The notes: a model not told the origin generated them from the sequence alone. Shown: positions 1,118-59,588, counted from the first letter of the stretch. The stretch is 64,000 nucleotides of DNA from Candidatus Yanofskybacteria bacterium (GCA_003514055.1 DOSG01000008.1:45895-109894), one strand, 5' to 3'. Translations and numbers: made by a program.

Positions 1118-1183
1118 AGCGCCCTCGAGTACTCAGACTAGATTATCACTACAATATTAATAATCAAGCGGGCTTGATCACAA

Positions 1184-1219
1184 TTACAAAGAGCGCCCCG
1201 AGAAGGGCGTTCTTTGTAA
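1184..1219. repeat. GC-rich palindromic mini-element, intergenic copy; also the terminator hairpin 13 nt downstream of ctpA
   Basis: TTACAAAGAGCGCCCC-GAGAA-GGGCGTTCTTTGTAA. Arms match the copies at 6933, 30017 and 52719. Confidence 0.6.
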
Positions 1220-1231
1220 TCTACTGAGTTA

Positions 1232-5411: not shown

Positions 5412-5723
5412 ATGGATGAGCTTACTCCAAGCCAAGAAATTATAAAGAACGATTTAATCGCACATTTCAAAGAAGACGCGACATCGTCACTGAATCAAGT
5501 AGTCAATTTTCTTGGTCAAAAGCAAACTTGGTATTGCATAAATTTCGACCATAGATATCTCAACTTTGCCAAGCAAGACATGATAATGGTGCTAAAATAT
5601 TTGATAGCCCAGAGTATATTGGAAATATCCGATTGGAGGACATCTCCCGATATGAATGCTACATTTGGATTTGTGCTGGAACCAGTTTTTTCTCTTTCCG
5701 AAACATTTCAAGCCCAGGCTTAG
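5412..5723 (+). CDS. hypothetical protein (103 aa)
   Basis: ORF track only; weak RBS; convergent 4-nt overlap with the Wzy-like gene. Confidence 0.3.
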   Translation: MDELTPSQEIIKNDLIAHFKEDATSSLNQVVNFLGQKQTWYCINFDHRYLNFAKQDMIMVLKYLIAQSILEISDWRTSPDMNATFGFVLEPVFSLSETFQAQA

Positions 5724-18131: not shown

Positions 18132-18344
18132 TTAAAATCTATAGACTATCCTGCCCCTGGCACCGTCTGGGCTCAATTCTAAAGAAACCTTGTCCCCTAT
18201 CATTACTTTAATGTAGTTAAGGCGCATCTTGCCCGCCAAGTATGCCAAAACCTCTTTGCCATCGTCAAGCTTAACTTTGAAGGTAGTACCTGGCAAAGCC
18301 TCTATAACCTGACCGTTTACTCTATTTTTGGGGTTTTCGTTCAA
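18132..18344 (-). CDS. infA: translation initiation factor IF-1
   Basis: S1-like fold sequence [31 protein letters not shown]. Confidence 0.9.
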
Positions 18345-19052: not shown

Positions 19053-21149
19053 CTATTCAAATACTACCTCCATCTTAACCTTGGCTTTGTCTTTAGGTAC
19101 AGTTTTCACCCAAAAAGGCGAGAGACTTACTTTGGCTGAATCGATAACCTTATCGGCCTTGAGCTCCTGCAAGTAATCTCTAACTTGTGAATCCTTTTTG
19201 CCCAGCAAATCGACAAGGATCTTATCAGCATCAATCTTCTTATATTGCATGCCACGGACCATAGTCGTAAACGTTAAGGTGCTGGTTGCGTCATCGTAAG
19301 CTATATTAATGTAACTCTTATCAAGTTTATCCGCCTGCACCGTAGAGGTACCGCCCTTCTCTACATATTTAACTGCTAATTCGTCTATATCTTCCTCTCT
19401 GAAGCCAATAGTTTTAATAAGGCCCGTTAGAGTCATAGTAAAGGTATCGGCTGCCTCATCTACCTGAGCCGTAGATTGTGTGTCTTTAATCACGACATTG
19501 GCCGAATTAATAATCTTTAGATTGGCCGATTGAGATTTCAACGCCTCGGCCACGACTCTTTTAAGCTCTTCCATCAAAACATCTTTAGCCGCTTGATAAT
19601 CCTGATCAGTAACCACCTTAGCCTTACCGCTCGTACCACCCTTCATGGGCTGGACTGACTTACCATATACTTTCTTTAATTTCTCTTGGTCATTCTTCTC
19701 CTTGAAAGCTGATACGATGAAATCAGATGCGGCTATGTTGTATTCGATACCCGGCTTATCAGCTATTACTTCAACTTCCATAGTCCCAGAACTAGATTTG
19801 GCAGCCGGAACAGTTATAGACTTAAGAGTCCTAAAAACTAGACCCTCCTTGGTCTCGAACCTGGTAGTAGCTATTAATTGTTGAGTGACGGCCAAATCAT
19901 TATATACCACAATCTTGCCTCTAGCTTTTTGGGCTACATCTTTTTCTCCAGTAGCGGGAAAAGACTTTGAGGCACTCTTCTCAATATTAAATAATTGCCC
20001 AGGTATTTTGTTGGAGTTCGGATCAACAGATGAATATTTATCAGAAGCTGAAATTTTCAACTCTAATTTTAGTGGATCTTTGGCTGGTACGATCTTAATA
20101 TTGGCGGCACCGCTAACAATATATATAGTCACTAAAAGCACTCCCACCGCAAAAACACCAATGCCCACTATTGCTTTTGACATTCTTTTACCAGAAGGGT
20201 TCCTGTGTTTTGTGTACGAGCCAGCAGACTTATTACTAGATCTAAAAATCCCAGACCAGCTAAATTTTGATTCGGGCTTTCTCTTATCCCAAAGGTGCTC
20301 GCTTTCCCAAACTTCCGTTATCTCGTCCACGTTACCGCCTTTCTTACTATCCGATTCTTTTCTTACCTCAAGCTTTATCGGCTTATAACTGCCACTTTTT
20401 ATCTTTAAATTTTTTATATCTGTATCGGATTGAGATATTATGTCATCCAGATTCTTTCTAGCCATAGCTGTGACGACTTTATAATCATGGTCACTTCCAG
20501 AAAAAGATATTTCTTCGGCCTCTTCATCATCGTCAGTCTTTAGATCTTTATCGTCGAATTCCTCTTCCAACTCTTCAAGGTCTTCCTCTTCTTCAATTTC
20601 TTCTTCGACTTCCTTCTCTAGATCATCCTCTTCCAGCGCATCTTCTTCGATGTCAAGCTTTTTGCCTTTTTTCACGCCTTTATCTTCTTCGACATCTACC
20701 AAATCTTCGTCTAAGTCTTCATCTTCTTCGTGTAACCCACGATCACCTAAATTCTCAGAAACGAAATCTTCGTCATGATATACTTCGGGATTTTCTGGAT
20801 CATCATCATTAATAGAGCTATCATCAACCTGATTGACGGCTAGAATCGCCGACGGTTTTTTTGACCCAGATACCGGTGACAGCAAGATATCGAATTTGTA
20901 GCTCTTAGCCATCTCATTCATTTCTGGATTTGAGCTTAATAAAGATATGGATTTACCATTCTCGTTAGCTTCTTGGCTCAAGGTAGCAAAATTCTCTGGC
21001 CTACTGAAGGCTTTGGCCTTTTTTGGAACTATAAAAATAACTTCCTTGGCGGAAGCTTGCTTAAACAAATTTAATATTTCCTCGAACTTATCATCTTTGA
21101 GTACGTTTATAATCTTTGTCGATGACATATTAACTGAATTATACCACAA
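19053..21149 (-). CDS. large hypothetical membrane protein with an acidic (Asp/Glu-rich) cytoplasmic linker, one TM helix and a roughly 350-aa extracytoplasmic domain
   Basis: EEDLEELEEEFDD low-complexity stretch; TM helix AIVGIGVFAVGVLLVTIYIV. Confidence 0.55.
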   Translation of the reverse strand: MWYNSVNMSSTKIINVLKDDKFEEILNLFKQASAKEVIFIVPKKAKAFSRPENFATLSQEANENGKSISLLSSNPEMNEMAKSYKFDILLSPVSGSKKPSAILAVNQVDDSSINDDDPENPEVYHDEDFVSENLGDRGLHEEDEDLDEDLVDVEEDKGVKKGKKLDIEEDALEEDDLEKEVEEEIEEEEDLEELEEEFDDKDLKTDDDEEAEEISFSGSDHDYKVVTAMARKNLDDIISQSDTDIKNLKIKSGSYKPIKLEVRKESDSKKGGNVDEITEVWESEHLWDKRKPESKFSWSGIFRSSNKSAGSYTKHRNPSGKRMSKAIVGIGVFAVGVLLVTIYIVSGAANIKIVPAKDPLKLELKISASDKYSSVDPNSNKIPGQLFNIEKSASKSFPATGEKDVAQKARGKIVVYNDLAVTQQLIATTRFETKEGLVFRTLKSITVPAAKSSSGTMEVEVIADKPGIEYNIAASDFIVSAFKEKNDQEKLKKVYGKSVQPMKGGTSGKAKVVTDQDYQAAKDVLMEELKRVVAEALKSQSANLKIINSANVVIKDTQSTAQVDEAADTFTMTLTGLIKTIGFREEDIDELAVKYVEKGGTSTVQADKLDKSYINIAYDDATSTLTFTTMVRGMQYKKIDADKILVDLLGKKDSQVRDYLQELKADKVIDSAKVSLSPFWVKTVPKDKAKVKMEVVFE

Positions 21150-28912: not shown

Positions 28913-28958
28913 CCCTGGCGAAGCAAGCAGACAGCTGCTCTTCGCCAGGGCTTTTTTT
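28913..28958 (+). terminator. rho-independent terminator
   Basis: CCCTGGCGAAG-loop-CTTCGCCAGGG-CTTTTTTT. Confidence 0.7.
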
Positions 28959-31900
28959 ATTCCATCATTTTACGTAGCGCACAATATTCGCAGTCTTTTT
29001 CTTTGCATCCCTTATCCCAAAAATCCAGATTCATTATTTCTTGAGATGTTTTAATGACTAATTCTTTAAGTTCTACGACCTCATCGGACGTGACATAGAA
29101 ACTTTCTTTCTTATATCTCCCCTTCTCGTCCGGCTCTATGAAATCAATGTCACCCGATATCATTTTAAATTTCTTGCCTTCAGCATAATTATTCAATAAC
29201 AAATTGTAGAATACCAGCTGTCTTTTTATATCACCATTAGATGTTTGAGTAGTACCCTCAATTTCGCCACGAGTTTTCTGCCTACCAGTTTTATAATCAA
29301 CCACGTTCACCTCTCCCGAGTCATTCAGTATCTCAATTTTATCTATCTTACCAGTAATCCTAACGTCCGCGGCAACGACTATCCCTGGTATGTTGAATTC
29401 ATTCAAAAGATTAGCCCTCCAGTGACCAACGTAATTATCGTAATAACCAGAAAGCGATTTCTCTCCTTTCTGAAGCACTTCTTCAAAATCACTCTCCTTA
29501 AGGGGTTCTCTCTGTAAATATGTGACAAACTTACTCAATAGCATCTCTTTATTAGCTTCGCCTTCCTTGATTTTATCGAAGAAATCTTTGAGCGCACCGT
29601 GAATAGCTGTGCCATACATTTGATGCTTATCTTTGGCTTTTGGTATGCGTAACAGATTAGTATAGAAATACTGCCACGGACATCTTAGATAGTTGTTTAA
29701 GCCCGTAACTGATAACCCATTCTTAGTGAATAAGTCTTTTATGAATTCTTTGTCTTTTATACTTGTTCCAGATTTCACTTTTGGCGTAAACATAATTGTT
29801 CTGTCTCTTTCAAATCCATCTTCATACTCATCGGCAACGACGGTTTCTATGAGATCGGATTTAATCTCCTGGATAAATTGAGATGGTATCTGCTGCTTAC
29901 CGGAAAGTGCTTCCTGGGCATATGTAATTGTCACCAATTTCTTAGCTCGAGTTATGGCCACATAAAATAATCTCCTCTCGTCATCATTTCCATCATCATC
30001 TGCAAGATCCTTATCCTTACAAAGGGCGCCCCTGAGGGGCGCCCTTTGTAACCCAAGAGAATAGACCGAGGCAGGCAAAGACAACAGGTTAGTTCGCCTC
30101 TTATTACCCCAGTGGCCGTCAAAAGCATTCACTATATATACATATTCGAACTCCTGTCCTTTCGATCTGTGGGCGGTCATGAGTCTTATATTCTTTGTGC
30201 CCGATTGGCCTAAACTCTTTTTAATAAGTAGATTATGTATCTGAAGGGTGTCTATATATTTTATAAAATCGCGTAGATCGTAATCTTTGTGTTTCTCCAA
30301 CAATGACTTGATCTCGTTGAATAATCCATCCAATTTTTGCATCTTCTCAGCTACGTCCTTTTCTTTCATTATGTGAGCTAGAAAGCCAGACTCGTTTATC
30401 ATCAACTCGAAGAATTCCGATAAGCCCTGGTTTTTCTGAATCGTAGCCCACCCCGCTACTTTTTTATAGAAATCATGAATTTTATCGGCTGATTCGAGAT
30501 CAATACGCTCAAGATTCTTCTTATGTTTTACAATATCGTGTACGGGAATCTTTTCTTTGTTTGAATAGTTTATGATTTTGTATACGTCCAGCGGATCAAT
30601 ACCTAGAAAATCAATATGCATAGATTCGAGTATCCTAGCCTGAGATCCGAAATTATCCACCAGGCGCATTATCAGCATAAGCTTCTTAATATCGGGATCA
30701 GACAAAATATCCTGATCAGATTCTATAGCAAAAGGCACGTCAACTCTTTCAAGCATATCCGCAAAAGTAAAAACATCTTTATTGTCACGATACAGGATGG
30801 CAATCTCGGACGGCACAACGCCCTTAGAAATTAAATTCTTTATGCTTTTAGCCACGAAATACGCCTCAACTTTTGGCTTTGAAAAGGATAAAAGCCTTAT
30901 CTTTTCCTCTTCGTATCTCATATTAGCTTGTAGTTGCTTATCTCCGGCCAAGATACTATGGGCCGAATCTAGAATATTTTGAGTTGAGCGATAATTATCT
31001 TCCAAGACAATTAGTCTTGCCTTAGGATACAAATTCTTGAAATATAGAAAATTCTCTATAGATGCACCCTGGAATCTGAATATGGCCTGTTTCTCGTCGC
31101 CAACCACGAATATGTTTGGATTAGGATGGAAATTACAGAGTAGCTCCAGAACCTTATTCTGGGCATTATTTGTATCCTGGTGTTCGTCTACTAGCATGTA
31201 CTGGTGTTGCTCCTGCAATATCAATAAAAGATTCTGATTCTGACTGAGTTCTCGCAGAACCTCCATAATCATATCGCTATAGTCATACATCTTATTCTCA
31301 GCCAACTGCTTCTGATAAAATCCGTAGACCACGGCCAACTCCTTATTTTTTCGAATCTGCTTTTCAATTTTCTGATATTCACCCTTCATCTTACCCTTGT
31401 GTGCACCTTTCTCATGATAAAGATCGTCAATCGATGTAAAGTCTTTCTCCTCTTTCTCTACTAGCAGCTTAAATCCTTCCGGGCTAAGACCTTCGCGCTT
31501 AAGATCGTTTAAAGATTTCAAAATTTCTCGCGTGTAATAAAGCGGATCACCGAATGGCTTGAGATCCTTAAGAGGTAGGCCATCGATGGCTTTTTCGATG
31601 ATATTTATCTGATCAACTTCAGTAATATTCTGCGACCCAATGATTGCCGGAAATTCTTCGGGGTAATTTTTAATCACGTCATTGCAAAAACCATGAAAAG
31701 TACTTATCACCACCGAATATCCTGGAGTGCCAATAATCTCGACTAATCGTCTGCGCATTGAAGATACGCCAGATTCTGTGAATGTAAGCGCTAAAATATT
31801 TTCCGGTTCAGTATCGGTCTTCTTTAGTATATTAGCGATGCGCAAAGTCAAAATCTGGGTCTTGCCAGTTCCGGGTCCAGCCACCACCATCACAGGCCCA

Positions 31901-31983
31901 TCAACCGCATCCACGGCCTCCTTCTGAGCCTTATTGAGTTTTTTATATAGCTCCTCGAACTTCGCCATGATTAGATTATACAT
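28957..31983 (-). CDS. UvrD/PcrA-type SF1 helicase fused to a C-terminal Cas4/AddB-like PD-(D/E)xK nuclease with a four-Cys cluster
   Basis: Walker A MVVAGPGTGKTQ; UvrD motifs through about aa 700; C-terminal YLRCPWQYF ... CKEKDCEYC. Confidence 0.85.
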   Translation of the reverse strand: MYNLIMAKFEELYKKLNKAQKEAVDAVDGPVMVVAGPGTGKTQILTLRIANILKKTDTEPENILALTFTESGVSSMRRRLVEIIGTPGYSVVISTFHGFCNDVIKNYPEEFPAIIGSQNITEVDQINIIEKAIDGLPLKDLKPFGDPLYYTREILKSLNDLKREGLSPEGFKLLVEKEEKDFTSIDDLYHEKGAHKGKMKGEYQKIEKQIRKNKELAVVYGFYQKQLAENKMYDYSDMIMEVLRELSQNQNLLLILQEQHQYMLVDEHQDTNNAQNKVLELLCNFHPNPNIFVVGDEKQAIFRFQGASIENFLYFKNLYPKARLIVLEDNYRSTQNILDSAHSILAGDKQLQANMRYEEEKIRLLSFSKPKVEAYFVAKSIKNLISKGVVPSEIAILYRDNKDVFTFADMLERVDVPFAIESDQDILSDPDIKKLMLIMRLVDNFGSQARILESMHIDFLGIDPLDVYKIINYSNKEKIPVHDIVKHKKNLERIDLESADKIHDFYKKVAGWATIQKNQGLSEFFELMINESGFLAHIMKEKDVAEKMQKLDGLFNEIKSLLEKHKDYDLRDFIKYIDTLQIHNLLIKKSLGQSGTKNIRLMTAHRSKGQEFEYVYIVNAFDGHWGNKRRTNLLSLPASVYSLGLQRAPLRGALCKDKDLADDDGNDDERRLFYVAITRAKKLVTITYAQEALSGKQQIPSQFIQEIKSDLIETVVADEYEDGFERDRTIMFTPKVKSGTSIKDKEFIKDLFTKNGLSVTGLNNYLRCPWQYFYTNLLRIPKAKDKHQMYGTAIHGALKDFFDKIKEGEANKEMLLSKFVTYLQREPLKESDFEEVLQKGEKSLSGYYDNYVGHWRANLLNEFNIPGIVVAADVRITGKIDKIEILNDSGEVNVVDYKTGRQKTRGEIEGTTQTSNGDIKRQLVFYNLLLNNYAEGKKFKMISGDIDFIEPDEKGRYKKESFYVTSDEVVELKELVIKTSQEIMNLDFWDKGCKEKDCEYCALRKMME
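30017..30051. repeat. GC-rich palindromic mini-element, in frame inside the helicase-nuclease CDS
   Basis: TTACAAAGGGCGCCCC-TGA-GGGGCGCCCTTTGTAA. 14-bp perfect stem. Translated as LQRAPLRGALC. Confidence 0.6.
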
Positions 31984-32016: not shown

Positions 32017-33000
32017 CTATTCGGTCATATTAATAGACGTATCCACTCCGAATTGTTTAAAACTACCTTCCCCAAATGTTCTTTCAATTATTCTTGCTAT
32101 TCTCAATAATCGGCCCGTCATTACAGCTTCTGCAAATAATTTAAACACATCTTCCTCTGAAGAGAATTCATCTGAATTTTTTACATAAATTTCTCTAACC
32201 AGACTACCTAGTTCTTTTCTCTCCTCGCTGTAGGCGTAGCCTTCTCTTAGCTTGATAGATGGGCCATCTTTTGTTTTGAAATCTCTGACCACGGCCAAGT
32301 CGTCTGCCGCAATCTCACGATTCCCATCTTCTGCAGATTTTTTGGCAATTTCTGATCTTTTTAATTCCCTTTCTTCGTATTCTTTTTTAGTAAGAGCCAG
32401 TCTACCGAAGTATCTTTTATCAAATCTTTTCATCAATTCCTCCGTTATCGCTTCGTTTAAATTATGAAAAAATATTTTATTCTTTTTCTCAGAAAAAATT
32501 TCGAAACCAATTCTTCTAGGCCCGAGAATTACCAATTCTCCTCCGTCGTCTTCGTCTTTCTCGAAGCGAAATTTTTTCCCTCTGCTTGCATTCTGGATAG
32601 ATTGGAAGGAATTAAAATGTAATAGCTCATGCACCACGCGTATCGCGGCTTTGAGATCGCTGTAACTTGAATCTACGAAGATAAAAATGGCCTGAGACTC
32701 AGGGCTGTAGAGTCCATTAAATTCTTGGGTCTTGTCGCTGGCACTTTTAGGAAGATTGTGCCTATCAATCACATGGATATTCTTGGCAGGCACATCGATA
32801 GGCTCTCCTCCATATTCGGAGACAAATTCTCTTAGAAAAGAATTAATCTGTCCCAGAGCTTCGATCCATTCGGGACTTTTAGCTACTTCATAAGACTTAG
32901 TTACGTTGCTATTTAATATATCACCGTACAAGTCCTGAAAAACTTCAGCGTCAGTCCTTAGTACTTTAGATATCCCGGATTTTCTTTCAAATTTATTCAT
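32017..33000 (-). CDS. hypothetical protein with an HExxH motif (possible Zn-dependent peptidase; an ImmA/IrrE-like fold not excluded)
   Basis: VVHELLHFNS at aa 124-128; 33-nt gap to the helicase-nuclease gene suggests co-transcription. Confidence 0.5.
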   Translation of the reverse strand: MNKFERKSGISKVLRTDAEVFQDLYGDILNSNVTKSYEVAKSPEWIEALGQINSFLREFVSEYGGEPIDVPAKNIHVIDRHNLPKSASDKTQEFNGLYSPESQAIFIFVDSSYSDLKAAIRVVHELLHFNSFQSIQNASRGKKFRFEKDEDDGGELVILGPRRIGFEIFSEKKNKIFFHNLNEAITEELMKRFDKRYFGRLALTKKEYEERELKRSEIAKKSAEDGNREIAADDLAVVRDFKTKDGPSIKLREGYAYSEERKELGSLVREIYVKNSDEFSSEEDVFKLFAEAVMTGRLLRIARIIERTFGEGSFKQFGVDTSINMTE

Positions 33001-33094
33001 GTCTCTAGCTTAGAATAATTGAAATTTATGAACAAGGGCACTTAGAAGTAAAAACCTGCTTAAAAAATAGTGTCTGGAAATGACGACCTATAAA

Positions 33095-33123
33095 AATCAA
33101 AAGCCGCCTGCAAGGCGGCTAGG
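33095..33123 (-). terminator. terminator hairpin, one of two exact 29-nt copies
   Basis: AATCAAAAGCCGCCTGCAAGGCGGCTAGG, identical to 33808-33836. Confidence 0.6.
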
Positions 33124-33753
33124 CTAGCCTTTACGCCACTCCCAACACAAGAATCGGCTTTTACGCATGCCAACTGGATAGGGATAATATGAGAACTCCA
33201 CGATCAGTGGTCTAATCCAGTGGAATCTCGTCAATTCGAAAGCGCGGTTTCTCAAAATCTCAGGCACCCATTCTGGCCACGGCTGCTGCAACCTTCTTTG
33301 GGCCGTCTTGAGAGTATCGATATCTCCATGCTCTATGTCTCTACCATAGCCAGATCCAGTCAAATATTCTAACTGCATCTCCACATGCTGGAATGCCTGA
33401 GAGATCCTTATCGTCCCCTGATAAATATTATCGGCTCGCGGCAACGTTTCATTGAATAAAGAAAAATAATTAGGGTTAGTTTCTTTAACGAAGCCGACTA
33501 TCGCATCCCAATCTTTCTGCTCTGGCTTAAATGGTCCGCGACCCTTATCATCTGCTCTAAATGTTCGACAGGAGATTAATCCACCACGCTCATCGAAAAA
33601 CTTTCTCAATTGATCGAAATCAATCCCTCCTGGAGGAAAAGCGATGTAATTCGGGATATTCTGACCAAACTCAAAAAGCTGCCACATACGATGATGCTTG
33701 AGAGGATATTCCAATTCTTGTCCAACCGAGACAATGTTAGATAGAGCCGCCAT
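33124..33753 (-). CDS. hypothetical protein (209 aa)
   Basis: ORF track; Trp/aromatic-rich; no family recognised. Confidence 0.5.
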   Translation of the reverse strand: MAALSNIVSVGQELEYPLKHHRMWQLFEFGQNIPNYIAFPPGGIDFDQLRKFFDERGGLISCRTFRADDKGRGPFKPEQKDWDAIVGFVKETNPNYFSLFNETLPRADNIYQGTIRISQAFQHVEMQLEYLTGSGYGRDIEHGDIDTLKTAQRRLQQPWPEWVPEILRNRAFELTRFHWIRPLIVEFSYYPYPVGMRKSRFLCWEWRKG

Positions 33754-41140: not shown

Positions 41141-41231
41141 CTTCAAATGGTCGGGCACATTCGCGCTGGTGCGCTCAGTATTTCCTCGCTCACGCTCGGT
41201 CACTGCCTCTTGCCCTCATATACGGTAAATT

Positions 41232-41256
41232 AAAACAGGGTTTTTAACCCTGTTTT
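41232..41256 (-). terminator. terminator immediately downstream of tRNA-Pro
   Basis: AAAACAGGG-TTTTTAA-CCCTGTTTT. Confidence 0.65.
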
Positions 41257-41267
41257 AATTTCCGATG

Positions 41268-41451: not shown

Positions 41452-42522
41452 ATGGATGCCCAGAACAATGCACGAGTCGAAAGAAATCAAAATGGTGGCC
41501 TAGCTTTAATTCCCATGCCAGGATTTGAGAGCCTAGCCCTAGAGACAAAAACTTTAATTGAGAAGAACTATCCCGATAAAGTTGACATTGCCACGCCGAG
41601 AGTTGATCATCATAAAAGCGGTGAACCGTTTATTGAATTACCAAAAGATCATATTGGCGGACACGATTGTTTCCTACTCACGAGCGGTCCAGGCACAGAA
41701 CTCATGCTGGCTCAAACCCAGATAGCCCTGGCCTACCTCGTAGGCAGAAAAGCTAAACGCATAACCTTAGTATCTGGGTATAGTCCCCTTTCTAGGTCAG
41801 ATAAGGATGACGGACTTAAAGTTTTAGCGCTTAATCGCATTATTATTGATATGTTTTGGGCGGCATCATACCAGAAGCTTGAACGCATGATAGTCGCGAA
41901 TCTACATTCCCCGGGCGGAGTTGCCGCTGGACGACCTGGGCTGATCACCGAAATATCTCTAGCGAGAAGGGTTATTAAAAAAGCTATCAAAGACGCAATC
42001 AAACAATTTCCCGATAGAAATATCTGCCTGCTATTCCCAGACGAGAGTGCTTTAAAGAGAGTCGAACGCGAGATCGTAGAGATAGAGAGGGAAATGTCTC
42101 GGACTTTCCACATCATATGCGGTAGAAAAAGAAGGAAAAGCAGCGATGACATAACGTTAGCTGGATTCTCTGGCGATCTGGATAAACTGGATGGGTCAAT
42201 CGTCATATCCGTAGATGACGAGATAGCAACTGGAAATACAAATATCAAAACCGCCAAGGCCTTCAGAAGCTTTAGCGATATCAAGGCCTTTTGGGCCACA
42301 GTCATTCACTTTATCGGCTGCGGAAATTGCGTTAGTGCTCTCGCAGACGTCAACTGTCCCATAGATAGAATCTACGCCACCGACACGATACCCATAGATA
42401 ATAGATACGAGATTACGCCACTAATCGATAGTGGTCGACTGGTAATTCTCCGATGGGCGCGAGATCTGTTCAAGATTATTCGCTACTCTCATTGGGACAT
42501 GTCCATCAGAGAAATACGTTAA
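41452..42522 (+). CDS. prs: ribose-phosphate pyrophosphokinase (PRPP synthetase)
   Basis: RITLVSGYSPLSRSDK (PRPP-synthase flexible loop) and ISVDDEIATGNT PRPP-binding motif. Confidence 0.8.
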   Translation: MDAQNNARVERNQNGGLALIPMPGFESLALETKTLIEKNYPDKVDIATPRVDHHKSGEPFIELPKDHIGGHDCFLLTSGPGTELMLAQTQIALAYLVGRKAKRITLVSGYSPLSRSDKDDGLKVLALNRIIIDMFWAASYQKLERMIVANLHSPGGVAAGRPGLITEISLARRVIKKAIKDAIKQFPDRNICLLFPDESALKRVEREIVEIEREMSRTFHIICGRKRRKSSDDITLAGFSGDLDKLDGSIVISVDDEIATGNTNIKTAKAFRSFSDIKAFWATVIHFIGCGNCVSALADVNCPIDRIYATDTIPIDNRYEITPLIDSGRLVILRWARDLFKIIRYSHWDMSIREIR

Positions 42523-43016: not shown

Positions 43017-43021
43017 ACAAA

Positions 43022-43060
43022 GTATACTAAAACGCGCCTACTTGGCGCGTTTTAGTATAC
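43022..43060. terminator. 17-bp perfect palindrome (terminator) after tRNA-Arg
   Basis: GTATACTAAAACGCGCC-TACTT-GGCGCGTTTTAGTATAC. Confidence 0.65.
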
Positions 43061-43101
43061 TTATACTTTTTCTAAAATTTCGTTAGTACCCATATTCAGC
43101 A

Positions 43102-44656: not shown

Positions 44657-45940
44657 CTAGCGCGATCCTCCCGAGATGACATATGTGAAATCATCCCCTT
44701 CTCTTCTAACGCCGGCCCTAGCAAAGGGCGTTTCTACGACTCCATCAGGTCCAGCCGATAAACACATTGAATTGTACGGCCACCTGAGCTCATCATCAAA
44801 GAAGAATATACTGTTAACCATGTACCTATTCCCCCAGGGATCTGGGCCGATAGCAGATAGATAAGCTCCTCTCCAGCCCATACCAATCGATGAGCTATAG
44901 CTTAGTCGCATTACATCTGGATATAGATATGCGTTTTCAATTCTGCCTCTCGGCAGATTCTGAACCAAGTGATTTTCCATTATATCAACCACCAGACTAT
45001 TCTCCGATTCATAGGCCCACCCAATCGTCTTGCGCTTCACCAACATCTGTCTCTCAAGCTTACTCTCGACAATAAATGATGACTGACGATCTGAGACGCT
45101 AAATAGCGCCAGATTTCCACAAGCTTCTGGAACTAGAAATATATATCTGGCCTTAGGAGTCTCGACCTGGAACATGAAGGCATTAAGTGACTCTCCGGAC
45201 CACTGAACATTTTTCAGCAGATCGACGGCGCGATCGTTAACTGCTGCCTTTGGACGATACGCCATCCACAGCATTCTTATCCCAGGATTCATTCTACATT
45301 TAACTATGCCACTTTGAGGCAATATTACCTCGCTACAAGACGTCATAGAGCCCTTCACCTCTTTAGCGTTAGAGATCCTACTAATTACAATCTCTGGGGA
45401 ATCAATCTCGGCCTTAACTAATAGCTCGCGGAAATCTGCCGCATGTTTCTCTGCCGCCGATCTCAAATCAATGTCTGATTTGATTTCTGATGTAAATGCG
45501 GTAGCGCCTCCTAAATGCGTCGCATTTATCCAAGTCATATTCGTTGCTACGATTCGTTGAGAGTAGCTGATTGACTCACGAGATGACATTCGCGTGTAGT
45601 TTGCTTCATATGAATATGATCCATAATCAAAGAGCTGAGCACCCAAGCCACGAGTTCTAATGGCGTTACCTTCGCTAACAAGCAGATTCACACGATTGTT
45701 TCTCGAGCATGGGAGACGACCGTCTAATCTAATACATGGACCCGTATCCACCAACATCCTAGACAACGACACTCCAATTGCCTCACAATCTTCTTTAACC
45801 TTTACAAAACGAGCATCTCGGACGAAATCCATGATCGAAGGAGCCAATACACCAGCCAAAAGCATCAATGTAGCCAATATTATGGTCACTTCGACTAGCG
45901 ATAAGCCATGCTTACCATGACGTAAGCGTTTGTATGTCAC
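44657..45940 (-). CDS. large type IV pilin-like protein (prepilin-type N-terminus); true start is GTG at 45940, so the ORF-track 5' extension is spurious
   Basis: GGAGA SD 6 nt before the GTG; leader MTYKRLRHGKHG followed by LSLVEVTIILATLMLLAGVL (class III signal peptide, Glu+5). Confidence 0.65.
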   Translation of the reverse strand: MTYKRLRHGKHGLSLVEVTIILATLMLLAGVLAPSIMDFVRDARFVKVKEDCEAIGVSLSRMLVDTGPCIRLDGRLPCSRNNRVNLLVSEGNAIRTRGLGAQLFDYGSYSYEANYTRMSSRESISYSQRIVATNMTWINATHLGGATAFTSEIKSDIDLRSAAEKHAADFRELLVKAEIDSPEIVISRISNAKEVKGSMTSCSEVILPQSGIVKCRMNPGIRMLWMAYRPKAAVNDRAVDLLKNVQWSGESLNAFMFQVETPKARYIFLVPEACGNLALFSVSDRQSSFIVESKLERQMLVKRKTIGWAYESENSLVVDIMENHLVQNLPRGRIENAYLYPDVMRLSYSSSIGMGWRGAYLSAIGPDPWGNRYMVNSIFFFDDELRWPYNSMCLSAGPDGVVETPFARAGVRREGDDFTYVISGGSR

Positions 45941-46043
45941 AAGGGTCTCCTTTTTTGAACGAACGGAACCTAAGGCTAGTGAACCACTTCGTGATAGCAG
46001 TGTCAATAAAAATAAGAAGGCCCGAGAACGTCTCAAGGCAATC

Positions 46044-46069
46044 AAAAAAGCACGCCCCTTGGGGCGTGC
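46044..46069 (-). terminator. rho-independent terminator
   Basis: AAAAAA-GCACGCCC-CTTG-GGGCGTGC. Confidence 0.6.
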
Positions 46070-47476: not shown

Positions 47477-47529
47477 TCTCGCCTCTTTTCAAAGACCACG
47501 TTAACTCTATTAAATCATTTGCTCGCAAT

Positions 47530-47560
47530 AAAACAACCCCGCCTAGGCGGGGTTGTTTTA
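47530..47560 (-). terminator. terminator downstream of tRNA-Gly
   Basis: AAAACAACCCCGCC-TAG-GGCGGGGTTGTTTT. Confidence 0.7.
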
Positions 47561-47593
47561 TTGGATTGAATGAGTTCATGTCATCACAATTTG

Positions 47594-50093: not shown

Positions 50094-51644
50094 ATGAGAC
50101 CCGTCGTACTGTGCATACTCGATGGCTGGGGATTTTCCAAGCAAAAGCTCGGCAACGCTATTTCGACCGCCGAAACTCCAAACATCGACTTCATAAAAAA
50201 TAACTACCCATCCCTTTTGCTTCAGGCTTCCGGCGTTGCCGTCGGCTTATCTTGGGGTGAATCGGGCAATAGCGAAGTTGGCCACCTGACTATTGGTGCA
50301 GGCAGGATAATCTTTCAATATCTCAGTCGGATAAATAAGGCTATAGAAAATGGCAGTTTTTTTACTAACCCCGAGCTGATGCAAGCCATTGATCATGCGA
50401 AAAACAACCACTCCTCTCTGCACTTGGCTGGGCTATTAACCTCCAATTCGGTGCATGCCTATACCGATCACATTCTAGCTCTCATTGATTTAGCAAAACG
50501 AAACGGCATAAATAATGTTTATCTCCACCTTTACACGGATGGCAAAGACTCTGGCTTAAAAGAAGCTCCATCTATATATAAGAAGATCGATGAGTTTATG
50601 AAAACTTCTGGTGTTGGGAAATTAGCTTCTATGATAGGCAGAGATATAGCTATGGATCGAAATGAGAACTGGGATCTCACTGATCAAACGTATCAACTCA
50701 TGGTTAAGGGCGAGGCCGAATCGGCTACAGACCCATATGAGGCATTGAATAGTCGTTACGAAAAAGGACTAACCGACATAAATATGCCTCCTATGTTATT
50801 CGATGCGGATGGCACGATCAGGGACGGAGATGCTCTAATTTTCTTCAATTTTAGAGAAGATCGCATGAAGCAAATAGCCCAAGCCTTCACTCAAGAGAAG
50901 TTTGATAAATTTGAGACGATTGAGATGCCAAATCTCCTGACTATATGTATGACTCAGTACTTCGAAAATTCTAACCTCCATGTTGCCTTTCCGGCGACAC
51001 AAATTAACAACTGCTTATCCGAAGTAATCAGTACAAATGGACTTAGGCAATTGCACATCGCTGAGACGGAAAAGTACGCTCATGTGACTTTCTTTTTTAA
51101 TGCTCTCAGGCGACAGCCATTTGATGGCGAAACTGATACTTTGATCAAGTCAGACAGAGTGGCCACAGAAGATTCGGCCATGAAGGCTAACGAAATATGT
51201 GAAGCAGTTATTAAAGATCTAGAGAATGATATAAATTCATTCATACTGGTCAATTTTGCTAACGCCGATATGCTGTCTCACATGGGTGAATTCAATCAAG
51301 TTGTTGAGGGCGTAGAAACGCTAGATAGACTACTAGGAAAGCTAAGAGAAGTCGTCTTGGCTAAAAATGGATATTTAATTATCGCATCAGACCATGGCAA
51401 TGCCGAATCATTAACATACAAAGGCACTGGGGATTCCGAAACAAAGCACAACCCGAATCCAATCCCGCTATATTTGATAGCCAGGGAGTACGAGAGAGCT
51501 CGAACCCCAGAGGAAATCATTCGATCAGAGTCTAGTCCAGGTGGCTTTCTTTCGGACATAGCTCCGACCGTGATAGATCTTTTAGGCATTCAAAAGCCGG
51601 TCGAGATGACCGGCGATAGCCTACTAGAAACACTGCTCAATTAA
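50094..51644 (+). CDS. gpmI: 2,3-bisphosphoglycerate-independent phosphoglycerate mutase
   Basis: PVVLCILDGWG N-terminus and a DHGN metal-binding block. Confidence 0.9.
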   Translation: MRPVVLCILDGWGFSKQKLGNAISTAETPNIDFIKNNYPSLLLQASGVAVGLSWGESGNSEVGHLTIGAGRIIFQYLSRINKAIENGSFFTNPELMQAIDHAKNNHSSLHLAGLLTSNSVHAYTDHILALIDLAKRNGINNVYLHLYTDGKDSGLKEAPSIYKKIDEFMKTSGVGKLASMIGRDIAMDRNENWDLTDQTYQLMVKGEAESATDPYEALNSRYEKGLTDINMPPMLFDADGTIRDGDALIFFNFREDRMKQIAQAFTQEKFDKFETIEMPNLLTICMTQYFENSNLHVAFPATQINNCLSEVISTNGLRQLHIAETEKYAHVTFFFNALRRQPFDGETDTLIKSDRVATEDSAMKANEICEAVIKDLENDINSFILVNFANADMLSHMGEFNQVVEGVETLDRLLGKLREVVLAKNGYLIIASDHGNAESLTYKGTGDSETKHNPNPIPLYLIAREYERARTPEEIIRSESSPGGFLSDIAPTVIDLLGIQKPVEMTGDSLLETLLN

Positions 51645-52076: not shown

Positions 52077-53171
52077 TCACTTTATTACTCCTCCGCCAAG
52101 AAGAAGTTGTCCCCTGTAAAAAACTGCCGACTGGCCCGAAGTTATAGCTCTAACTGGTTTATCGAATTCTAAATTACCATCATCAGATAAAATGGCTTTT
52201 TCCGATTTAGTTCTGTATCTTATTTTAACGTCAATTCGTGCTGGTAATTTAATTGGACCATTGACCCAGCTGAGATTGCTCACGACCGTCTTCGTTGACT
52301 TGAGATCTTTCTCGCTTCCAACGTAAATAATATTTTTCTCTACGTCTTTTCCGATTACATAAAATGGACCATCTCCAGATTTAATATCTAACCCATGACG
52401 CTGGCCGATAGTATAGTAGAAAACACCATCGTGAGTTCCAATGGCTTGGCCATCTTTTATTATCTCGCCTTTTTTCGATTTTATTCTTTTCAGCAAGAAA
52501 TCTTTCACGTTTAATGGTCCGATGAAACAGACTCCTTGGCTATCCTTCTTCCCCGCATTCGGCAATTTAAATTTTTTGGCTAGTTTCCTTATTTCTGGCT
52601 TAGTATATCCTCCCACCGGGAATAAGCACCTTTCTATCTCTTTTTCTTTCAGAGTCCATAAAAAATAAGACTGGTCCTTGTTCTTATCTTTGCCCTGATA
52701 AAGATAAGAACCGCAAGAAACAAAGGGCGCCTTTTTGGCCCCAAAGGCGCCCTTTGTGATTTTTCTTACATAGTGTCCGGTAGCGATGAAATCCGCGCCC
52801 TCACTCAATGCTCTTTTCAAGAATAAGCCGAATTTAATCTCCTTGTTGCACATTACGTCAGGATTCGGAGTCCGACCAAGCTTATATTCTCTGATCATGT
52901 AATCGGCAACTTGTTTTTTATATTCCTTAGTAAAATCCCAGGTCTTAAATGGTATATTCAGACTAGCCGCGGCCTTCGCGGCTTCTTCGCGTTCTTCTTT
53001 CCATATACAAAAATCACCGACATCGGGTTGCCATTGTTTCATAAAAACTCCGACCACTTTATGGCCTTCTTGCTTGAGCAGTGCCGCAGCCACAGAACTA
53101 TCCACTCCACCGCTCATGGCCACATAAACCAGCTTTTTGTTGTTCTCTGCTAATCTTGACATAATAGTCAA
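52077..53171 (-). CDS. mnmA: tRNA 2-thiouridine(34) synthase MnmA
   Basis: PP-loop VAMSGGVDSSV; KDQSYFL motif. Confidence 0.9.
   Translation of the reverse strand: MTIMSRLAENNKKLVYVAMSGGVDSSVAAALLKQEGHKVVGVFMKQWQPDVGDFCIWKEEREEAAKAAASLNIPFKTWDFTKEYKKQVADYMIREYKLGRTPNPDVMCNKEIKFGLFLKRALSEGADFIATGHYVRKITKGAFGAKKAPFVSCGSYLYQGKDKNKDQSYFLWTLKEKEIERCLFPVGGYTKPEIRKLAKKFKLPNAGKKDSQGVCFIGPLNVKDFLLKRIKSKKGEIIKDGQAIGTHDGVFYYTIGQRHGLDIKSGDGPFYVIGKDVEKNIIYVGSEKDLKSTKTVVSNLSWVNGPIKLPARIDVKIRYRTKSEKAILSDDGNLEFDKPVRAITSGQSAVFYRGQLLLGGGVIK
52719..52757. repeat. GC-rich palindromic mini-element, in frame inside mnmA
   Basis: AACAAAGGGCGCC-TTTTTGGCCCCAAA-GGCGCCCTTTGT, translated as ITKGAFGAKKAPFV. Confidence 0.6.
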
Positions 53172-54971: not shown

Positions 54972-56255
54972 CTAATCGTATTTCTGTAAAAAACGAATCT
55001 TGGCTAGGTAGCCCTTTGTTTCTGGGAGTAACTTGCCAAGCCAATCACTGAAACCGCCGGCTATGGCGGCCTTCAACGAGCTATTAACTCGCGCCGGTGA
55101 GCCGTTGTATCCAGCTGCTAGATATTCTTCGAGTTTAGGGTCGTCAACTATTCTACTTCCATGGACTTTCATTAGGCCTGCTAAATTATAATCATACAAA
55201 AGCACAGCTGCCATCATAGAATTCAGATGGTTAGCCGCGCCTTTTTCAAAGTCACTAATTAGTCCGGCTTTGGAATATATTTTTGCTAGCTCTTTATAAG
55301 TTCTCGGCGTAAATTGCACCCAGCCACACGCCGCCGCATAATTACAATTATCAGCGTAAGCCCCAGCTCCATTAGCTCCTATTATAATCTTAACTCTTTC
55401 GGAAGTTTTAGTTGGATCAAGAGTAAATTCTCCTAAATCGCTGTGCTCAGTTATGGGAATTTTGATAAAGTAATCTTTTCTTAAAACCGATACATCGGAT
55501 ACCAAAATCTTGGGATAAGCCCTAGATAATACGCCCTTAGATTTTAACGTAGCATAGGCCTGATCAACCATATCTCTGACGTATTGGTTACCCAAGGCTA
55601 TCATCTCTTGAGTGTGGTAATCCTCACTATACGGAGCATAAGTTACATATTTTATGTTAACCTTATTCTCATATACGAAACTTTTTTTACCATTTTTCAA
55701 AGTCACCGGCTTCTTTATCTTCACATTCTCGGGCTCGGGCCATTTATTGAATAAGACCATGGCATTTGCCGGCTGAGTTACCTTATACTGAGTTGCCCAA
55801 TAATTCCAGCGTATGCCATTGGACCTCTCTACAACCTCTATCTGATAACCAAGTGGAGCAATTAAATCTCCTCCTCTTTTAATTATTTTCACAACCTCCA
55901 ATGCGCCAGAGATTTTATCCATGACTACCAAGGCGATTTCTCTTTCCGGATCTTTTAATGATTTATCAGATATTTTAATCTGACCACCATTGATTGAAAT
56001 TCTTTTCTCTGTGTAGGGAATATCTTTCGTGCCCACCTTGAGCTCAATATCTTTTAGCAACAAACGCGCCTCTGAAATTTTACTAGAAAAATTCCACGTA
56101 GAGGGAGTTGGCGACTGCTCGACGATCATGGTCGGCCCAATCTCTATATTGTTCTTCTTCAACGTTATCTTGGCTGAAACGTAAGTCCAAGTCAAAAACA
56201 GTGATACGACTATTACAATACCAAGTGCCCATTGGACTTTTTTCGTATTTATCAT
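54972..56255 (-). CDS. membrane-anchored lytic transglycosylase (SLT domain)
   Basis: GLMKV and AAGYNGSPARV motifs (GLMQ / AYNAG equivalents). Confidence 0.6.
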   Translation of the reverse strand: MINTKKVQWALGIVIVVSLFLTWTYVSAKITLKKNNIEIGPTMIVEQSPTPSTWNFSSKISEARLLLKDIELKVGTKDIPYTEKRISINGGQIKISDKSLKDPEREIALVVMDKISGALEVVKIIKRGGDLIAPLGYQIEVVERSNGIRWNYWATQYKVTQPANAMVLFNKWPEPENVKIKKPVTLKNGKKSFVYENKVNIKYVTYAPYSEDYHTQEMIALGNQYVRDMVDQAYATLKSKGVLSRAYPKILVSDVSVLRKDYFIKIPITEHSDLGEFTLDPTKTSERVKIIIGANGAGAYADNCNYAAACGWVQFTPRTYKELAKIYSKAGLISDFEKGAANHLNSMMAAVLLYDYNLAGLMKVHGSRIVDDPKLEEYLAAGYNGSPARVNSSLKAAIAGGFSDWLGKLLPETKGYLAKIRFLQKYD

Positions 56256-57680: not shown

Positions 57681-59588
57681 ATGATCAAAAAGATATCATT
57701 ATTTATTCTCGCCTTTACGGTCGGCTTTGGATTATTTACATCTTCAGCTAAAGCAGAAGAATGTCCAGCAAGTGGAAATTATGCAGACAAGCTAAGAGGC
57801 GCCATGGATGCCATTCTAAAAGCAAATCCGAGTCTTGCCAATTCAACCAATACAGAAGAAAATAGTTTCGACTTCATAAGCTTGGTAGCAAAAAAGCCGC
57901 CGACGGGATTCAATGTAACAGATCAGGTCTTAAATGGAAACGGCAATCCTAATAGTGGAGATCTATTAGCAATATGGAAAAAGGGGGATGCTAAGATGGA
58001 GCGCTACGACGTGATAGCGGCCGTTGGTGCGGGAGATAGAACGATAGAATCCGCAGTAACCACTCAATTCGTCGGCTTAATACCTCTTAATTGTACAAGT
58101 AGCGGAGGAGGCAAGGAATGTAGTTGCGGTACCTCCGAACAAAATGCATCCAGACAGTGTGCTGTTGATGTTTATCAGGCTGGCGCTAGAGCAAAAGATC
58201 CAATTGCCATCGGAGCAGAATGCCGCAGTGCCGTCTGGTTCCAAAGAAATACCAATATAGCATTGTCCTGTTCGTCAGACTTTATATTTAGAGGGACACC
58301 CGCAAATCAGTGGAAGACATGGAGCGAAAACCAAATTGAGAAAGTCGTTAGGGCCTGTGATGGAGACAACGTGGCAAACGCCGATAAGATATTAGCAGCC
58401 CTTGAGGTAGTCTGGAGTTCTTGTTTGCCCGATAGAAAAGGAATTAGCTGTGTCTGCCAAACAGCAGAAGATGGAGAAAATAATTCATGCGCGATGTTTA
58501 TGGGAGAGATAGGCCCACCCACGATTACCTCTTTCACTCCGACAAAGGCAACGATCGGTACAGAAGTGTACATCGAAGGCACTCACCTGCCAGACAAGAT
58601 TGAGCTTCAGTCTTCCTCGCAAAAATACACCCTCGCTAGCCACGTTAATTCGACTTTCACGGGAACGACATTTACAGTTGATCCATCAGTAGAAGATGGA
58701 TCATACACTCTTTCAGTAGTTGGAATAAATGGAAGCGCTACAGCCAATCAAAAGCTGGTCATCACAGCTGGCGGCCCAGACTTCGCCGGCCGCACATTGC
58801 CAGCCACTCCGACTGGATATCCAGAAATGGGTGGCCTGTTGGGCATGATATTAACATGGTCTATTAGATTATTAGGCATATCCATATTTATTGTGGTCTT
58901 CTTAGCTGGCGCAGAATGGTTCTTTAATCAAGGCAATCCATCGATGTGGACTGGAGTTAAGACTAAGATACAAAATGCCATCATCGGAGCCATTATGCTT
59001 TTATCAGCCTATCTTATTCTATACACTATCAATCCCGACTTAGTTCAAGGCACATTCGAACTGCCAGGCATAACAGGAGGGAATACGGCACCAACAGCAA
59101 GTCCAAGCACTAGCCCATCGACACCGCCTACACCAACATCGTCCGGAACTCCACCCGAAGCTTGCAAACAAAATGTAGGCGGGACAGCATCTTCTGGCTG
59201 TACTCAAGCAACCTGCGTCGACATATCTAACTACACCCCTACCCATGGCTGCGAAAGTAATGGTGGCAAATGTTACGCATCATCTCAGGCAGCCCAAAAG
59301 ATACAGACTCTCGTTTCACGATTCAATGCCCTGTCAGGTGGTAGTTGTTCTCTACGAATATCTTCGACAATCCAAGGCCCAGGCGGACCGAGTATATCTG
59401 GATGCCACAAGCCAGGATCTGCCAATGCTGGGACATGTGCCGACTTCAACGTATCTCCGCACGGTTCTTGTTATAAATTCTTCTACCAGGCAGCAAAAGA
59501 AGCTAGCGTGGTATCTTTTCTAGATGAATACGTGCCAGCATGTATTCCTGCCAATGCTACCGGAGGGAATATCCACGTAAATTTCTAA
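57681..59588 (+). CDS. large secreted Cys-rich surface protein with an IPT/TIG-like segment, an internal two-helix hydrophobic hairpin, a Pro/Thr/Ser linker and a second Cys-rich domain
   Basis: Signal peptide; about 30 Cys; ITSFTPTKATIGTEVYIEGTHL; helices LLGMILTWSIRLLGISIFIVVFLAG and AIIGAIMLLSAYLILYTI; APTASPSTSPSTPPTPTSSGTPP linker. Confidence 0.55.
   Translation: MIKKISLFILAFTVGFGLFTSSAKAEECPASGNYADKLRGAMDAILKANPSLANSTNTEENSFDFISLVAKKPPTGFNVTDQVLNGNGNPNSGDLLAIWKKGDAKMERYDVIAAVGAGDRTIESAVTTQFVGLIPLNCTSSGGGKECSCGTSEQNASRQCAVDVYQAGARAKDPIAIGAECRSAVWFQRNTNIALSCSSDFIFRGTPANQWKTWSENQIEKVVRACDGDNVANADKILAALEVVWSSCLPDRKGISCVCQTAEDGENNSCAMFMGEIGPPTITSFTPTKATIGTEVYIEGTHLPDKIELQSSSQKYTLASHVNSTFTGTTFTVDPSVEDGSYTLSVVGINGSATANQKLVITAGGPDFAGRTLPATPTGYPEMGGLLGMILTWSIRLLGISIFIVVFLAGAEWFFNQGNPSMWTGVKTKIQNAIIGAIMLLSAYLILYTINPDLVQGTFELPGITGGNTAPTASPSTSPSTPPTPTSSGTPPEACKQNVGGTASSGCTQATCVDISNYTPTHGCESNGGKCYASSQAAQKIQTLVSRFNALSGGSCSLRISSTIQGPGGPSISGCHKPGSANAGTCADFNVSPHGSCYKFFYQAAKEASVVSFLDEYVPACIPANATGGNIHVNF

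Follow-up and report, generated by a model that had tools for sequence, protein, structure and literature searches.

The mnmA gene of a Candidatus Yanofskybacteria genome contains a perfect palindrome in the middle of its coding sequence. The question raised by this locus is where the palindrome comes from and what it means for the encoded tRNA 2-thiouridine synthase. We analyzed the gene within a stretch of 64,000 nucleotides (GCA_003514055.1 DOSG01000008.1:45895-109894), which is called the window throughout. All positions are counted from the first nucleotide of the window, and the features are collected in Table 1.

A perfect palindrome within an intact mnmA gene

The mnmA palindrome is a member of a repeat family which we call F1. 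Its arms, 15 nt each, are 100% complementary and enclose a loop of 8 nt, and as DNA the hairpin folds with -18.2 kcal/mol (z -5.66). The first-pass annotation had reported a copy of a palindromic element at this place, with arms of 12-13 nt. The arms turned out to be longer than written there, and the recognition of a repeated element was correct, as the same arms were found at 6933-6968 and 30017-30051 and in degenerate form at 1183-1220. In the 64-kb window, 19 perfect hairpins have a stem of 11 bp or more, vs 0-2 (mean 0.25) in 20 shuffles. Hence, the mnmA palindrome is not a product of chance. The observation of a perfect, in-frame palindrome inside mnmA is confirmed.

A second perfect hairpin (52680-52711) follows in the mnmA mRNA. 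It encodes GSYLYQGKDKN, and the codons of the conserved KDKN form one of its arms. At the orthologous site of locus L121, which stems from the closest relative found (86% nucleotide identity), only 6 bp pair. This hairpin formed in place and lies outside the F1 family. When both hairpins are folded jointly as RNA, -46.9 kcal/mol is obtained (z -6.55).

The product of the host gene is 100% identical to a Candidatus Yanofskybacteria MAG protein (GW2011_GWF1_44; cluster P0001). In the public annotation, the start is placed at an ATG three codons downstream, which gives a protein of 361 aa. The identical MnmA cluster was recovered on 30 contigs of several sources, which makes an artefact of assembly unlikely. 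The domains PF03054, PF20259, and PF20258 were detected with Pfam, and a phmmer comparison with E. coli MnmA (2DER) gave an E-value of 1e-86. In an alignment of 24 close homologues (A1), the PP-loop SGGVDS (S20-S25) and the catalytic residues C108 and C215 are invariant. The AlphaFold2 model has a mean pLDDT of 80.7 and a TM value of 0.86 to both 2HMA and 2DEU. The host protein therefore has what defines a tRNA 2-thiouridylase, namely the PP-loop SGGVDS, two catalytic cysteines, and the three-domain fold, and the alignment indicates that its catalytic motifs are intact despite the insert.

Table 1 Features of the mnmA locus and of related palindromes (window positions unless a locus is named)
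Feature	Position	Strand	Arms and loop	Context or product
mnmA (tRNA 2-thiouridine synthase)	52077-53171	-		364 aa, intact
38-bp palindrome, F1 member (inverted-repeat search)	52720-52757		arms 52720-52734 (ACAAAGGGCGCCTTT) / 52743-52757 (AAAGGCGCCCTTTGT), loop 52735-52742	inside mnmA
Inserted loop TKGAFGAKKAPFV	52719-52757	-		codons 139-151 of MnmA, palindrome-encoded
Second perfect hairpin	52680-52711		GTTCTTATCTTT-8-AAAGATAAGAAC, 12-bp stem	8 nt downstream of the F1 copy in the mnmA mRNA
F1 copy	6933-6968			inside Wzy_C ("O-antigen ligase") family gene 5720-7285 (-); encodes FTKGAFVQWRPLY
F1 copy	30017-30051			inside UvrD/PD-(D/E)XK helicase-nuclease gene 28957-31983 (-); encodes LQRAPLRGALCK in a different frame of the element
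Degenerate F1 copy	1183-1220			intergenic, 12 nt after the stop of S41 peptidase gene 1232-2506 (-); terminator position
Related 48-bp palindrome	9103-9150		20-nt arms, loop GCGGCCTA (sense strand)	inside GT2 gene 8667-9608 (-)
Element similar to 9103-9150	L164 1124-1165
In-place palindrome	3020-3051		perfect, 15-bp arms	no length change
In-place palindrome	4592-4619		perfect, 11-bp arms	no length change
iPGM gene	50094-51644	+		convergent to the minus-strand operon

The palindrome as an insertion in the MnmA linker

The palindrome-encoded segment is flanked by the conserved blocks ATGHYVRKI and SCGSYLYQGKDKNKDQSYFL, the downstream block being also given as LYQGKDKNKDQSYFL. In the phmmer alignment with E. 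coli MnmA (2DER), a gap of 11 residues lies exactly over TKGAFGAKKAPF. From HYVR[RK] to KDQSYFL, the linker measures 16 aa in E. coli and 27 aa here. The first-pass annotation had given about 12 and 23 aa for these lengths; the absolute values need correction, and the difference of 11 aa holds. Its proposal of an insertion of about 12 codons agrees with the 11-residue gap and with the linkers of other homologues. A minimal linker, which is a five-residue connection (HYIIKKGNK-LYQ), is present in 9 of the 24 close homologues, and the remaining sequences have unrelated inserts that differ in length. The segment from TGHY through KDQ was also compared in another 79 MnmA loci from metagenomes. It spans 15-67 aa, with the minimum of 15 in 18 of the 79, as compared to 31 aa here. 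Palindrome-free relatives with the same linker, which had been named as evidence against an insertion, were not found. The site is empty in the MnmA of P0004/L123 (73% identity), and P0005 MnmA, which is without the palindrome, has a shorter and different linker. Across Patescibacteria, this linker of MnmA is in general a hot spot of indels.

In L121, the mnmA linker contains two adjacent palindromes. One of them has the same arms as the window copy and a different loop, and the other reads ACAAAGACTGTCTTT-GCGGCCAA-AAAGACAGTCTTTGT. As L121 already has the same arms together with a second palindrome, the insertion is older than the separation of its lineage from that of the window. From these alignments, the mnmA palindrome is an insertion which adds 11-13 residues to the protein.

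In the AlphaFold2 model, residues 143-153 have a pLDDT below 50 and are placed between the strands 135-139 and 155-159. The model thus fits a disordered surface loop, which would cap a beta-hairpin of the N-terminal catalytic domain. Tryptic peptides across the insert are, for example, GAFGAK and APFVSCGSYLYQGK.

It could be argued that the inserted loop was selected for a role in MnmA and that its palindromy is incidental. The loop has been kept in frame in both the window and the L121 lineages. Its residues, however, differ between the two (GAK in the window vs SVS in L121), it is predicted to be disordered, and orthologues do without it. In addition, the helicase gene uses a different frame of this DNA element (Table 1). 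We regard an adaptive origin of the loop as extremely improbable.

A dispersed family of short palindromes

The 12-mer ACAAAGGGCGCC has six occurrences in the window, and these are always both arms of three palindromes (6933-6968, 30017-30051, and 52720-52757). The core of the F1 family is ACAAAG-N6-WTTG ... CAAW-N6'-CTTTGT, where N6' is the reverse complement of N6. This core is without a stop codon in all six frames. Thus, F1 copies can persist in coding sequence. We counted at least four copies in 64 kb (three of four intragenic), plus copies in seven related loci. The palindromes are 31-48 bp long, and the intergenic copies lie 12-57 nt after stop codons.

The copy in the helicase gene is a clean insertion of 12-13 aa relative to 35 of 38 orthologues. 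The remaining three have different inserts at the same spot, one of which also folds (z -5.25). The palindrome at 9103-9150 is an insertion of 17 aa in the GT2 glycosyltransferase relative to the L130 and L131 orthologues. It has the module AAAGACAGCCATTG and the loop type in common with F1 copies in relatives, and its loop GCGGCCTA is similar to GGGGCCAA of the mnmA copy.

Among the relatives, a copy located 57 nt after mnmA in L133 differs by 1 nt from the copy inside the ligase gene of L125 and L132. An intergenic F1 copy (ACAAAGGTGCCCTTTGT/ACAAAGGGCACCTTTGT) is located between convergent genes in L123. The module ACAAAGACTGTCTTTG is found in mnmA of L121 and in the ligase gene of L130, and the latter gene shares the module AAAGACAGCCATTG with the GT2 gene of the window. 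Palindromes of other families were found as well. The palindrome AAGGTCYGACCTT is present in three different MnmA loops (L149, L153, and L197) and in another gene in L185, the palindrome CCCCTCTCCTTA is present in L177 and L190, and L168 has three identical palindrome copies, one of them inside mnmA. On the basis of these sequence comparisons, F1 is a dispersed family of short palindromes in the Candidatus Yanofskybacteria genome and its relatives. Dispersal is supported because near-identical copies are located at non-homologous loci of different genomes and other families occupy different MnmA loops.

A scan of genome contigs with the pattern ACAAAGGGCGCC-N(0-24)-GGCGCCCTTTGT gave at least 120 matches. 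Nearly all of them are isolated hairpins of similar appearance from unrelated bacteria with GC-rich DNA (Proteobacteria, Actinobacteria, and others), and the window's own genome is absent among the matches listed. As the scan is swamped by look-alike terminators of GC-rich bacteria, the arm sequence alone is not diagnostic for the family. Scans of viral contigs with the family patterns gave two matches and one match, with no sign of a phage link for F1.

Inverted arms of this kind might also represent a DNA signal, either an uptake sequence or a site for a dimeric protein or a recombinase with a 13-15 / 8 / 13-15 architecture like that of lox or FRT. The over-representation of ACAAAGGGCGCC (11 matches with at most one mismatch vs 3.2 expected) is in line with a signal, and so are the exact 8-nt spacers of several intragenic hairpins (52720, 52680, 9103, and both L121 hairpins). 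In the window, however, ACAAAGGGCGCC is never single and occurs in inverted pairs only, which speaks against a DNA-uptake sequence. The spacers vary from 0 to 10 nt among the family copies, and the central N6 co-varies, which is the opposite of a fixed protein specificity. A recombinase site, as suggested by the 8-nt spacers, was rejected because the arm sequences differ and co-vary. Overall, we judge a DNA signal to be highly improbable.

Maintenance of palindromy and palindromes formed in place

The ligase orthologues of the window, L125/L132, and L131 have 64-70% protein identity (about 33% divergence), and each of them contains a palindrome of 34 nt at the same site. In these palindromes, 16-17 of 17 pairs are Watson-Crick pairs and none is a G-T pair, and 5 of 17 pairs are changed on both sides between the orthologues. 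The palindrome at the L130 ligase site is partly decayed.

Two further palindromes of the window (3020-3051 and 4592-4619) are located in conserved coding sequence and arose without a change in length. At 3020-3051, the encoded residues are GVNAGLQASVND vs GVNEGL[RK].S.GD in orthologues. At 4592-4619, the residues are the same as in the orthologues and the codons differ. The orthologous DNA at both sites has only 3-5 bp of pairing. In the comparison of the window with L121, three palindromes are perfect in one genome, and in the other they either contain 2-3 clustered mismatches or pair much less. At the DUF167 palindrome, which is perfect in L121 and imperfect in the window, the outgroups are ambiguous as to the direction of change because Pro is also present in L133. 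From the in-place palindromes, some intragenic hairpins arise without a mobile element.

The frequency of intragenic perfect hairpins differs between loci. One was found in 74 kb of the more distant relatives L125, L126, L128, and L130, 8-9 in the window, and four in 9.6 kb of L121. The unrelated loci L001-L120 were rejected as a baseline for this density because the presence of a palindrome had been the reason for choosing each of them and because gene calls from ORFs cannot be relied on when the DNA is GC-rich. L124 was set aside as a strain comparator, as it is 99.9% identical and uninformative on the evolution of the palindromes.

Quasipalindrome template-switch mutagenesis (the Ripley model; in E. 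coli, Lovett and colleagues) creates clustered substitutions by which an imperfect inverted repeat is made perfect. Such a pattern is seen in the two in-place palindromes (3020-3051 and 4592-4619) and in the comparison of the window with L121, and the strictly Watson-Crick changes would be explained by this mutagenesis. It differs in being a mutational mechanism and not an element, and alone it gives no account of identical arms at unrelated loci. Symmetry with Watson-Crick pairs only, together with clustered changes in one arm, suggests intrastrand template switching and not selection on an RNA hairpin, which would tolerate G-U pairs. We infer that the arms are probably kept complementary in this way. 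The double-sided Watson-Crick changes at the ligase site and the in-place palindromes without indels point to a hairpin process at the DNA level.

The mnmA palindrome itself could have been made in situ by a snap-back or template-switch error at a permissive loop, with a secondary resemblance to the other copies. The in-place palindromes without indels (3020-3051, 4592-4619, and 52680-52711), the different perfection of palindromes in L121 and the window, and the MnmA loops of other lineages, which contain perfect hairpins with many unrelated sequences, would be compatible with such a local origin. However, both arms and the loop are extra relative to the orthologues, and the insert is thus no inverted copy of neighboring sequence. 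Furthermore, the same arms of 12-15 nt recur in three genes of the window and in L121, and near-identical 34-nt copies are located at non-homologous loci of different genomes. We therefore consider a purely local origin unlikely.

On a larger scale, 27 perfect hairpins were found inside genes in 0.96 Mb, and 12 of them lie in mnmA, where they occupy at least six different loops. This enrichment has p = 8e-6 when mnmA is compared with the other intragenic hairpins only, using approximate ORF-based gene calls, and is not significant (p = 0.076) when all hairpins including intergenic ones are taken. We tentatively raise the possibility that Patescibacteria have an active process at the DNA level which creates, copies, and keeps perfect short palindromes in genes, that it is a major source of the lineage-specific loop insertions typical of their proteins, and that mnmA is a preferred host. 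Such a process might rest on synthesis templated by hairpins, which a loss of surveillance by hairpin nucleases or 3'-exonucleases may have unmasked, or on a hairpin-mobilizing enzyme. With time, the inserts would decay and leave the long linkers without palindromes that are found in relatives.

Terminator-like features of the mnmA copy

A functional cis-element under selection was considered in two forms. One is a terminator inside the gene, which would act on antisense or convergent transcripts where the genome leaves almost no room between genes, and the other is a hairpin in the mnmA mRNA which would act on stability or translation pausing. On the plus strand, which is antisense to mnmA, the hairpin is followed by GATTTTTCTT and is the top terminator-like match of the region. 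The terminator consensus is matched on this strand only, and the sense-strand tail fails the T-tract criterion and was not called. The convergent iPGM gene overlaps the end of the minus-strand operon without an intergenic terminator. The hairpin in mnmA, however, lies 1.1 kb past the iPGM stop, and the helicase and ligase copies are without a T-tract. In general, F1 is similar to intrinsic terminators in its A-tract, GC-rich stem, and T-tract, and the intergenic copies are at terminator positions. It differs in that the mnmA, helicase, ligase, and GT2 copies are located in the middle of coding sequence.

The arms of the mnmA palindrome are identical between the window and L121 over 26 nt at a background identity of 85.8% (p about 0.02), and the loop has diverged. 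Arm conservation could instead reflect function. Palindromy is also kept in the ligase orthologues, as a cis-element would be. Against this stand the changes of Watson-Crick type only, with no G-U intermediates, and the MnmA orthologues, most of which have no hairpin, or decayed inserts only, at the site. No Rfam family was matched by the element, as Rfam 15 gave sub-threshold chance matches only over 52657-52784 and four tRNAs only over the whole window. In our assessment, a selected cis-element is decidedly unlikely.

A probable selfish hairpin repeat and its comparison with known elements

The explanation that we favor, with moderate confidence, is that the mnmA palindrome is a selfish hairpin repeat of the REP/RPE type, which is translated as a tolerated loop and whose arms are kept complementary by template switching. 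F1 would have spread as a non-autonomous selfish hairpin element, and either an enzyme or ectopic template switching would have copied it as DNA. The intragenic copies that survived would be those which landed in frame in permissive loops. The intergenic copies lie just downstream of stop codons, like REP elements and terminators. In mnmA, 11-13 codons would simply be translated as a disordered surface loop, and the copy would be without function for the enzyme.

Several observations weigh against this explanation. No transposase, including the Y1 (IS200/IS605-type), no RAYT, and no integrase was detected with Pfam among the 78 ORFs of the window, which represents 64 kb of the genome. At the flanks of the four window copies, no consistent target-site duplication or conserved flanking tag was found, and an ACGC repeat is present at 9103-9150 only. 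No presence/absence polymorphism between strains was caught with L124, the sole close strain. The family has only about four copies in the 64 kb, which gives no sign of a high copy number, and the palindromes formed in place also count against a mobile element as the source of every intragenic hairpin.

REPs are short (20-40 bp), GC-rich, multi-copy stem-loops which are located mostly downstream of genes and have stems of mostly 6-9 bp (Di Nocera et al. 2013, PMC3733652). Intragenic REPs in Proteobacteria are occasional copies in ORFs which add a few residues at variable sites, and REPs are found at about the same recB site in two Xanthomonas species (PMC3733652). The REP sub-families differ by complementary stem changes, and they are recognized by four unpaired nucleotides, GTAG or CGTC, which border the stem-loop on one side (PMC3733652). 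F1 resembles REPs in its short GC-rich stem-loops, in the location of its intergenic copies downstream of genes, in the presence of copies inside ORFs, and in the complementary stem changes. It differs in its stems, which are perfect and 13-20 bp long, and in its host phylum, Patescibacteria. A GTAG or CGTC tag is absent at the flanks of all F1 copies in the window and of the copies in relatives. The window flanks are AAATC/ACAAAG..CTTTGT/TTCTT, GCG/TACAAAG.., TCC/TTACAAAG.., and CAAT/TACAAAG.. (the slash separates flank and element).

RPEs are described in PMC10969869, citing Ogata et al. (2000, 2002), as selfish palindromic DNA that is present in frame in unrelated housekeeping genes of Rickettsia, at places compatible with the fold, and also in non-coding DNA. 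According to the same source, an RPE has about 100-150 bp and encodes a conserved peptide in one frame (PMC10969869). F1 is similar in being located in frame in unrelated genes at permissive sites (MnmA and helicase, with a related palindrome in GT2). In contrast to RPEs, its palindromes have only 31-48 bp, and their reading frame varies, giving TKGAF.. in mnmA and the ligase and LQRAPL.. in the helicase. F1 is also distinct from MITEs, which have terminal inverted repeats around an internal segment, a target-site duplication, and usually 50-500 bp, as the whole F1 element is the palindrome.

Mitochondrial GC clusters, "byp" elements, and hairpin elements of fungi, sponges, and placozoans are GC-rich palindromes of 30-55 bp which spread in AT-rich compact genomes, including coding sequence. 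To our knowledge, mitochondrial hairpin elements have no dedicated transposase. The byp elements are skipped by the ribosome. For F1, nothing suggests such a bypass, as all copies are in frame and stop-free. F1 is similar to the GC clusters in size and behavior, and the difference is that these belong to organelles and not to bacteria. Repetitive hairpin-forming elements are described in sponge mtDNA (PMC2800124) and hairpins in placozoan mtDNA (PMC7813641). Our literature search on palindromic or hairpin insertions in coding genes of Patescibacteria (CPR) found nothing specific and analogues in other taxa only.

Meaning for MnmA and for Patescibacteria

For MnmA itself, the consequence of the insert is probably nil. 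If the explanation as a selfish hairpin repeat is true, some of the extra loops in conserved proteins of Patescibacteria (CPR) would have an origin at the DNA level and would be translated hairpin repeats instead of adaptive domains. In annotation and structure prediction, such segments could then be masked, and in phylogenetics, they would have to be treated as homoplastic indels at hot spots. The concept of selfish DNA inside genes, as known from RPEs and intragenic REPs, would then include a further phylum and an element of far smaller size. The co-variation by Watson-Crick pairs only and the in-place palindromes suggest that template switching is frequent in these tiny genomes. The more interesting lead is the wider pattern, which consists of the palindromes formed in place and of the hairpin inserts that MnmA has in at least six loops across Patescibacteria.

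Perfect hairpins in MnmA genes

We examined 80 MnmA loci (L133-L212). Among these, the MnmA genes of many Patescibacteria carry perfect hairpins of 13-21 bp, which lie in at least six distinct loops and in every case are insertions relative to the orthologues (examples in the table). Of the 27 intragenic hairpins, 12 fall within mnmA, whose share of the sequence is about 9% (p = 8e-6, gene calls being approximate).

In L168, the perfect palindrome TATACTGAGATGGCGA|TCGCCATCTCAGTATA occurs three times (4048-4081, 4676-4715, and 5304-5335). The spacing is exactly 628 nt, and the flanks differ. The first copy lies within mnmA and encodes DILRWRSPSQYM. The palindrome core, GGCGATCGCC, is similar to the cyanobacterial HIP1.

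Coordinates of hairpins, palindromes, and large ORFs
Feature	Locus	Coordinates	Arms	Location
MnmA hairpin	L153	10145-10183		mnmA
MnmA hairpin	L149	8574-8612		mnmA
MnmA hairpin	L151	10329-10367		mnmA
MnmA hairpin	L193	2372-2414		mnmA
MnmA hairpin	L197	10848-11038		mnmA
MnmA hairpin	L212	2419-2460		mnmA
Long perfect hairpin	Window	41227-41261		directly 3' of tRNA-Pro gene
Long perfect hairpin	Window	43020-43062		directly 3' of tRNA-Arg gene
Long perfect hairpin	Window	47526-47563		directly 3' of tRNA-Gly gene
Perfect palindrome	Window	3020-3051	15 bp	GT2 glycosyltransferase gene
Perfect palindrome	Window	4592-4619	11 bp	GT2 glycosyltransferase gene
Perfect palindrome	Window	5134-5169	11 bp	GT2 glycosyltransferase gene
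ORFs without Pfam match	Window	19053-21149, 32017-33753, 41452-42522, 44657-46045, 54972-56255, 57681-59588		

Terminator positions and convergent genes

The hairpins behind the three tRNA genes are perfect over 16-19 bp and occupy ordinary terminator positions. From them it is clear that this genome has unusually long and perfect hairpins between its genes as well.

In two convergent pairs, the ends of the genes overlap at the stop codons: iPGM (+) with a 128-aa ORF (-) at 51641-51644, and a 103-aa ORF (+) with the ligase gene (-) at 5720-5723. Neither site has space for an intergenic terminator. Downstream of iPGM, the first strong terminator-like hairpin on the + strand is the palindrome in mnmA, 1.1 kb away.

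Several large ORFs of the window (327-698 aa) had no Pfam match at E <= 0.001; such ORFs are typical of the phylum Patescibacteria.

Strain comparison and palindromes in GT2 genes

The close strain L124 is 99.9% identical to the window except for a single stretch of about 28 bp that contains several indels, within the Wzy_C ("O-antigen ligase") family gene (window 6190-6245, L124 11041-11096). This difference is a localised replacement rather than scattered SNPs. Just past the window start, L124 also has two identical hairpins, ACGGGCGGCC-tgtt-GGCCGCCCGT (18183-18206 and 19642-19665), with near-identical flanks, set 1.46 kb apart. This pair is a further small dispersed hairpin repeat of the same genome.

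The three palindromes in GT2 genes are distributed over two genes. At 3020-3051 and 4592-4619, the length is unchanged relative to the orthologues, and those of the more distant relatives L125 and L130 have identical or similar residues with DNA pairing of just 3-5 bp. These two look like quasi-palindromes made perfect by template switching.
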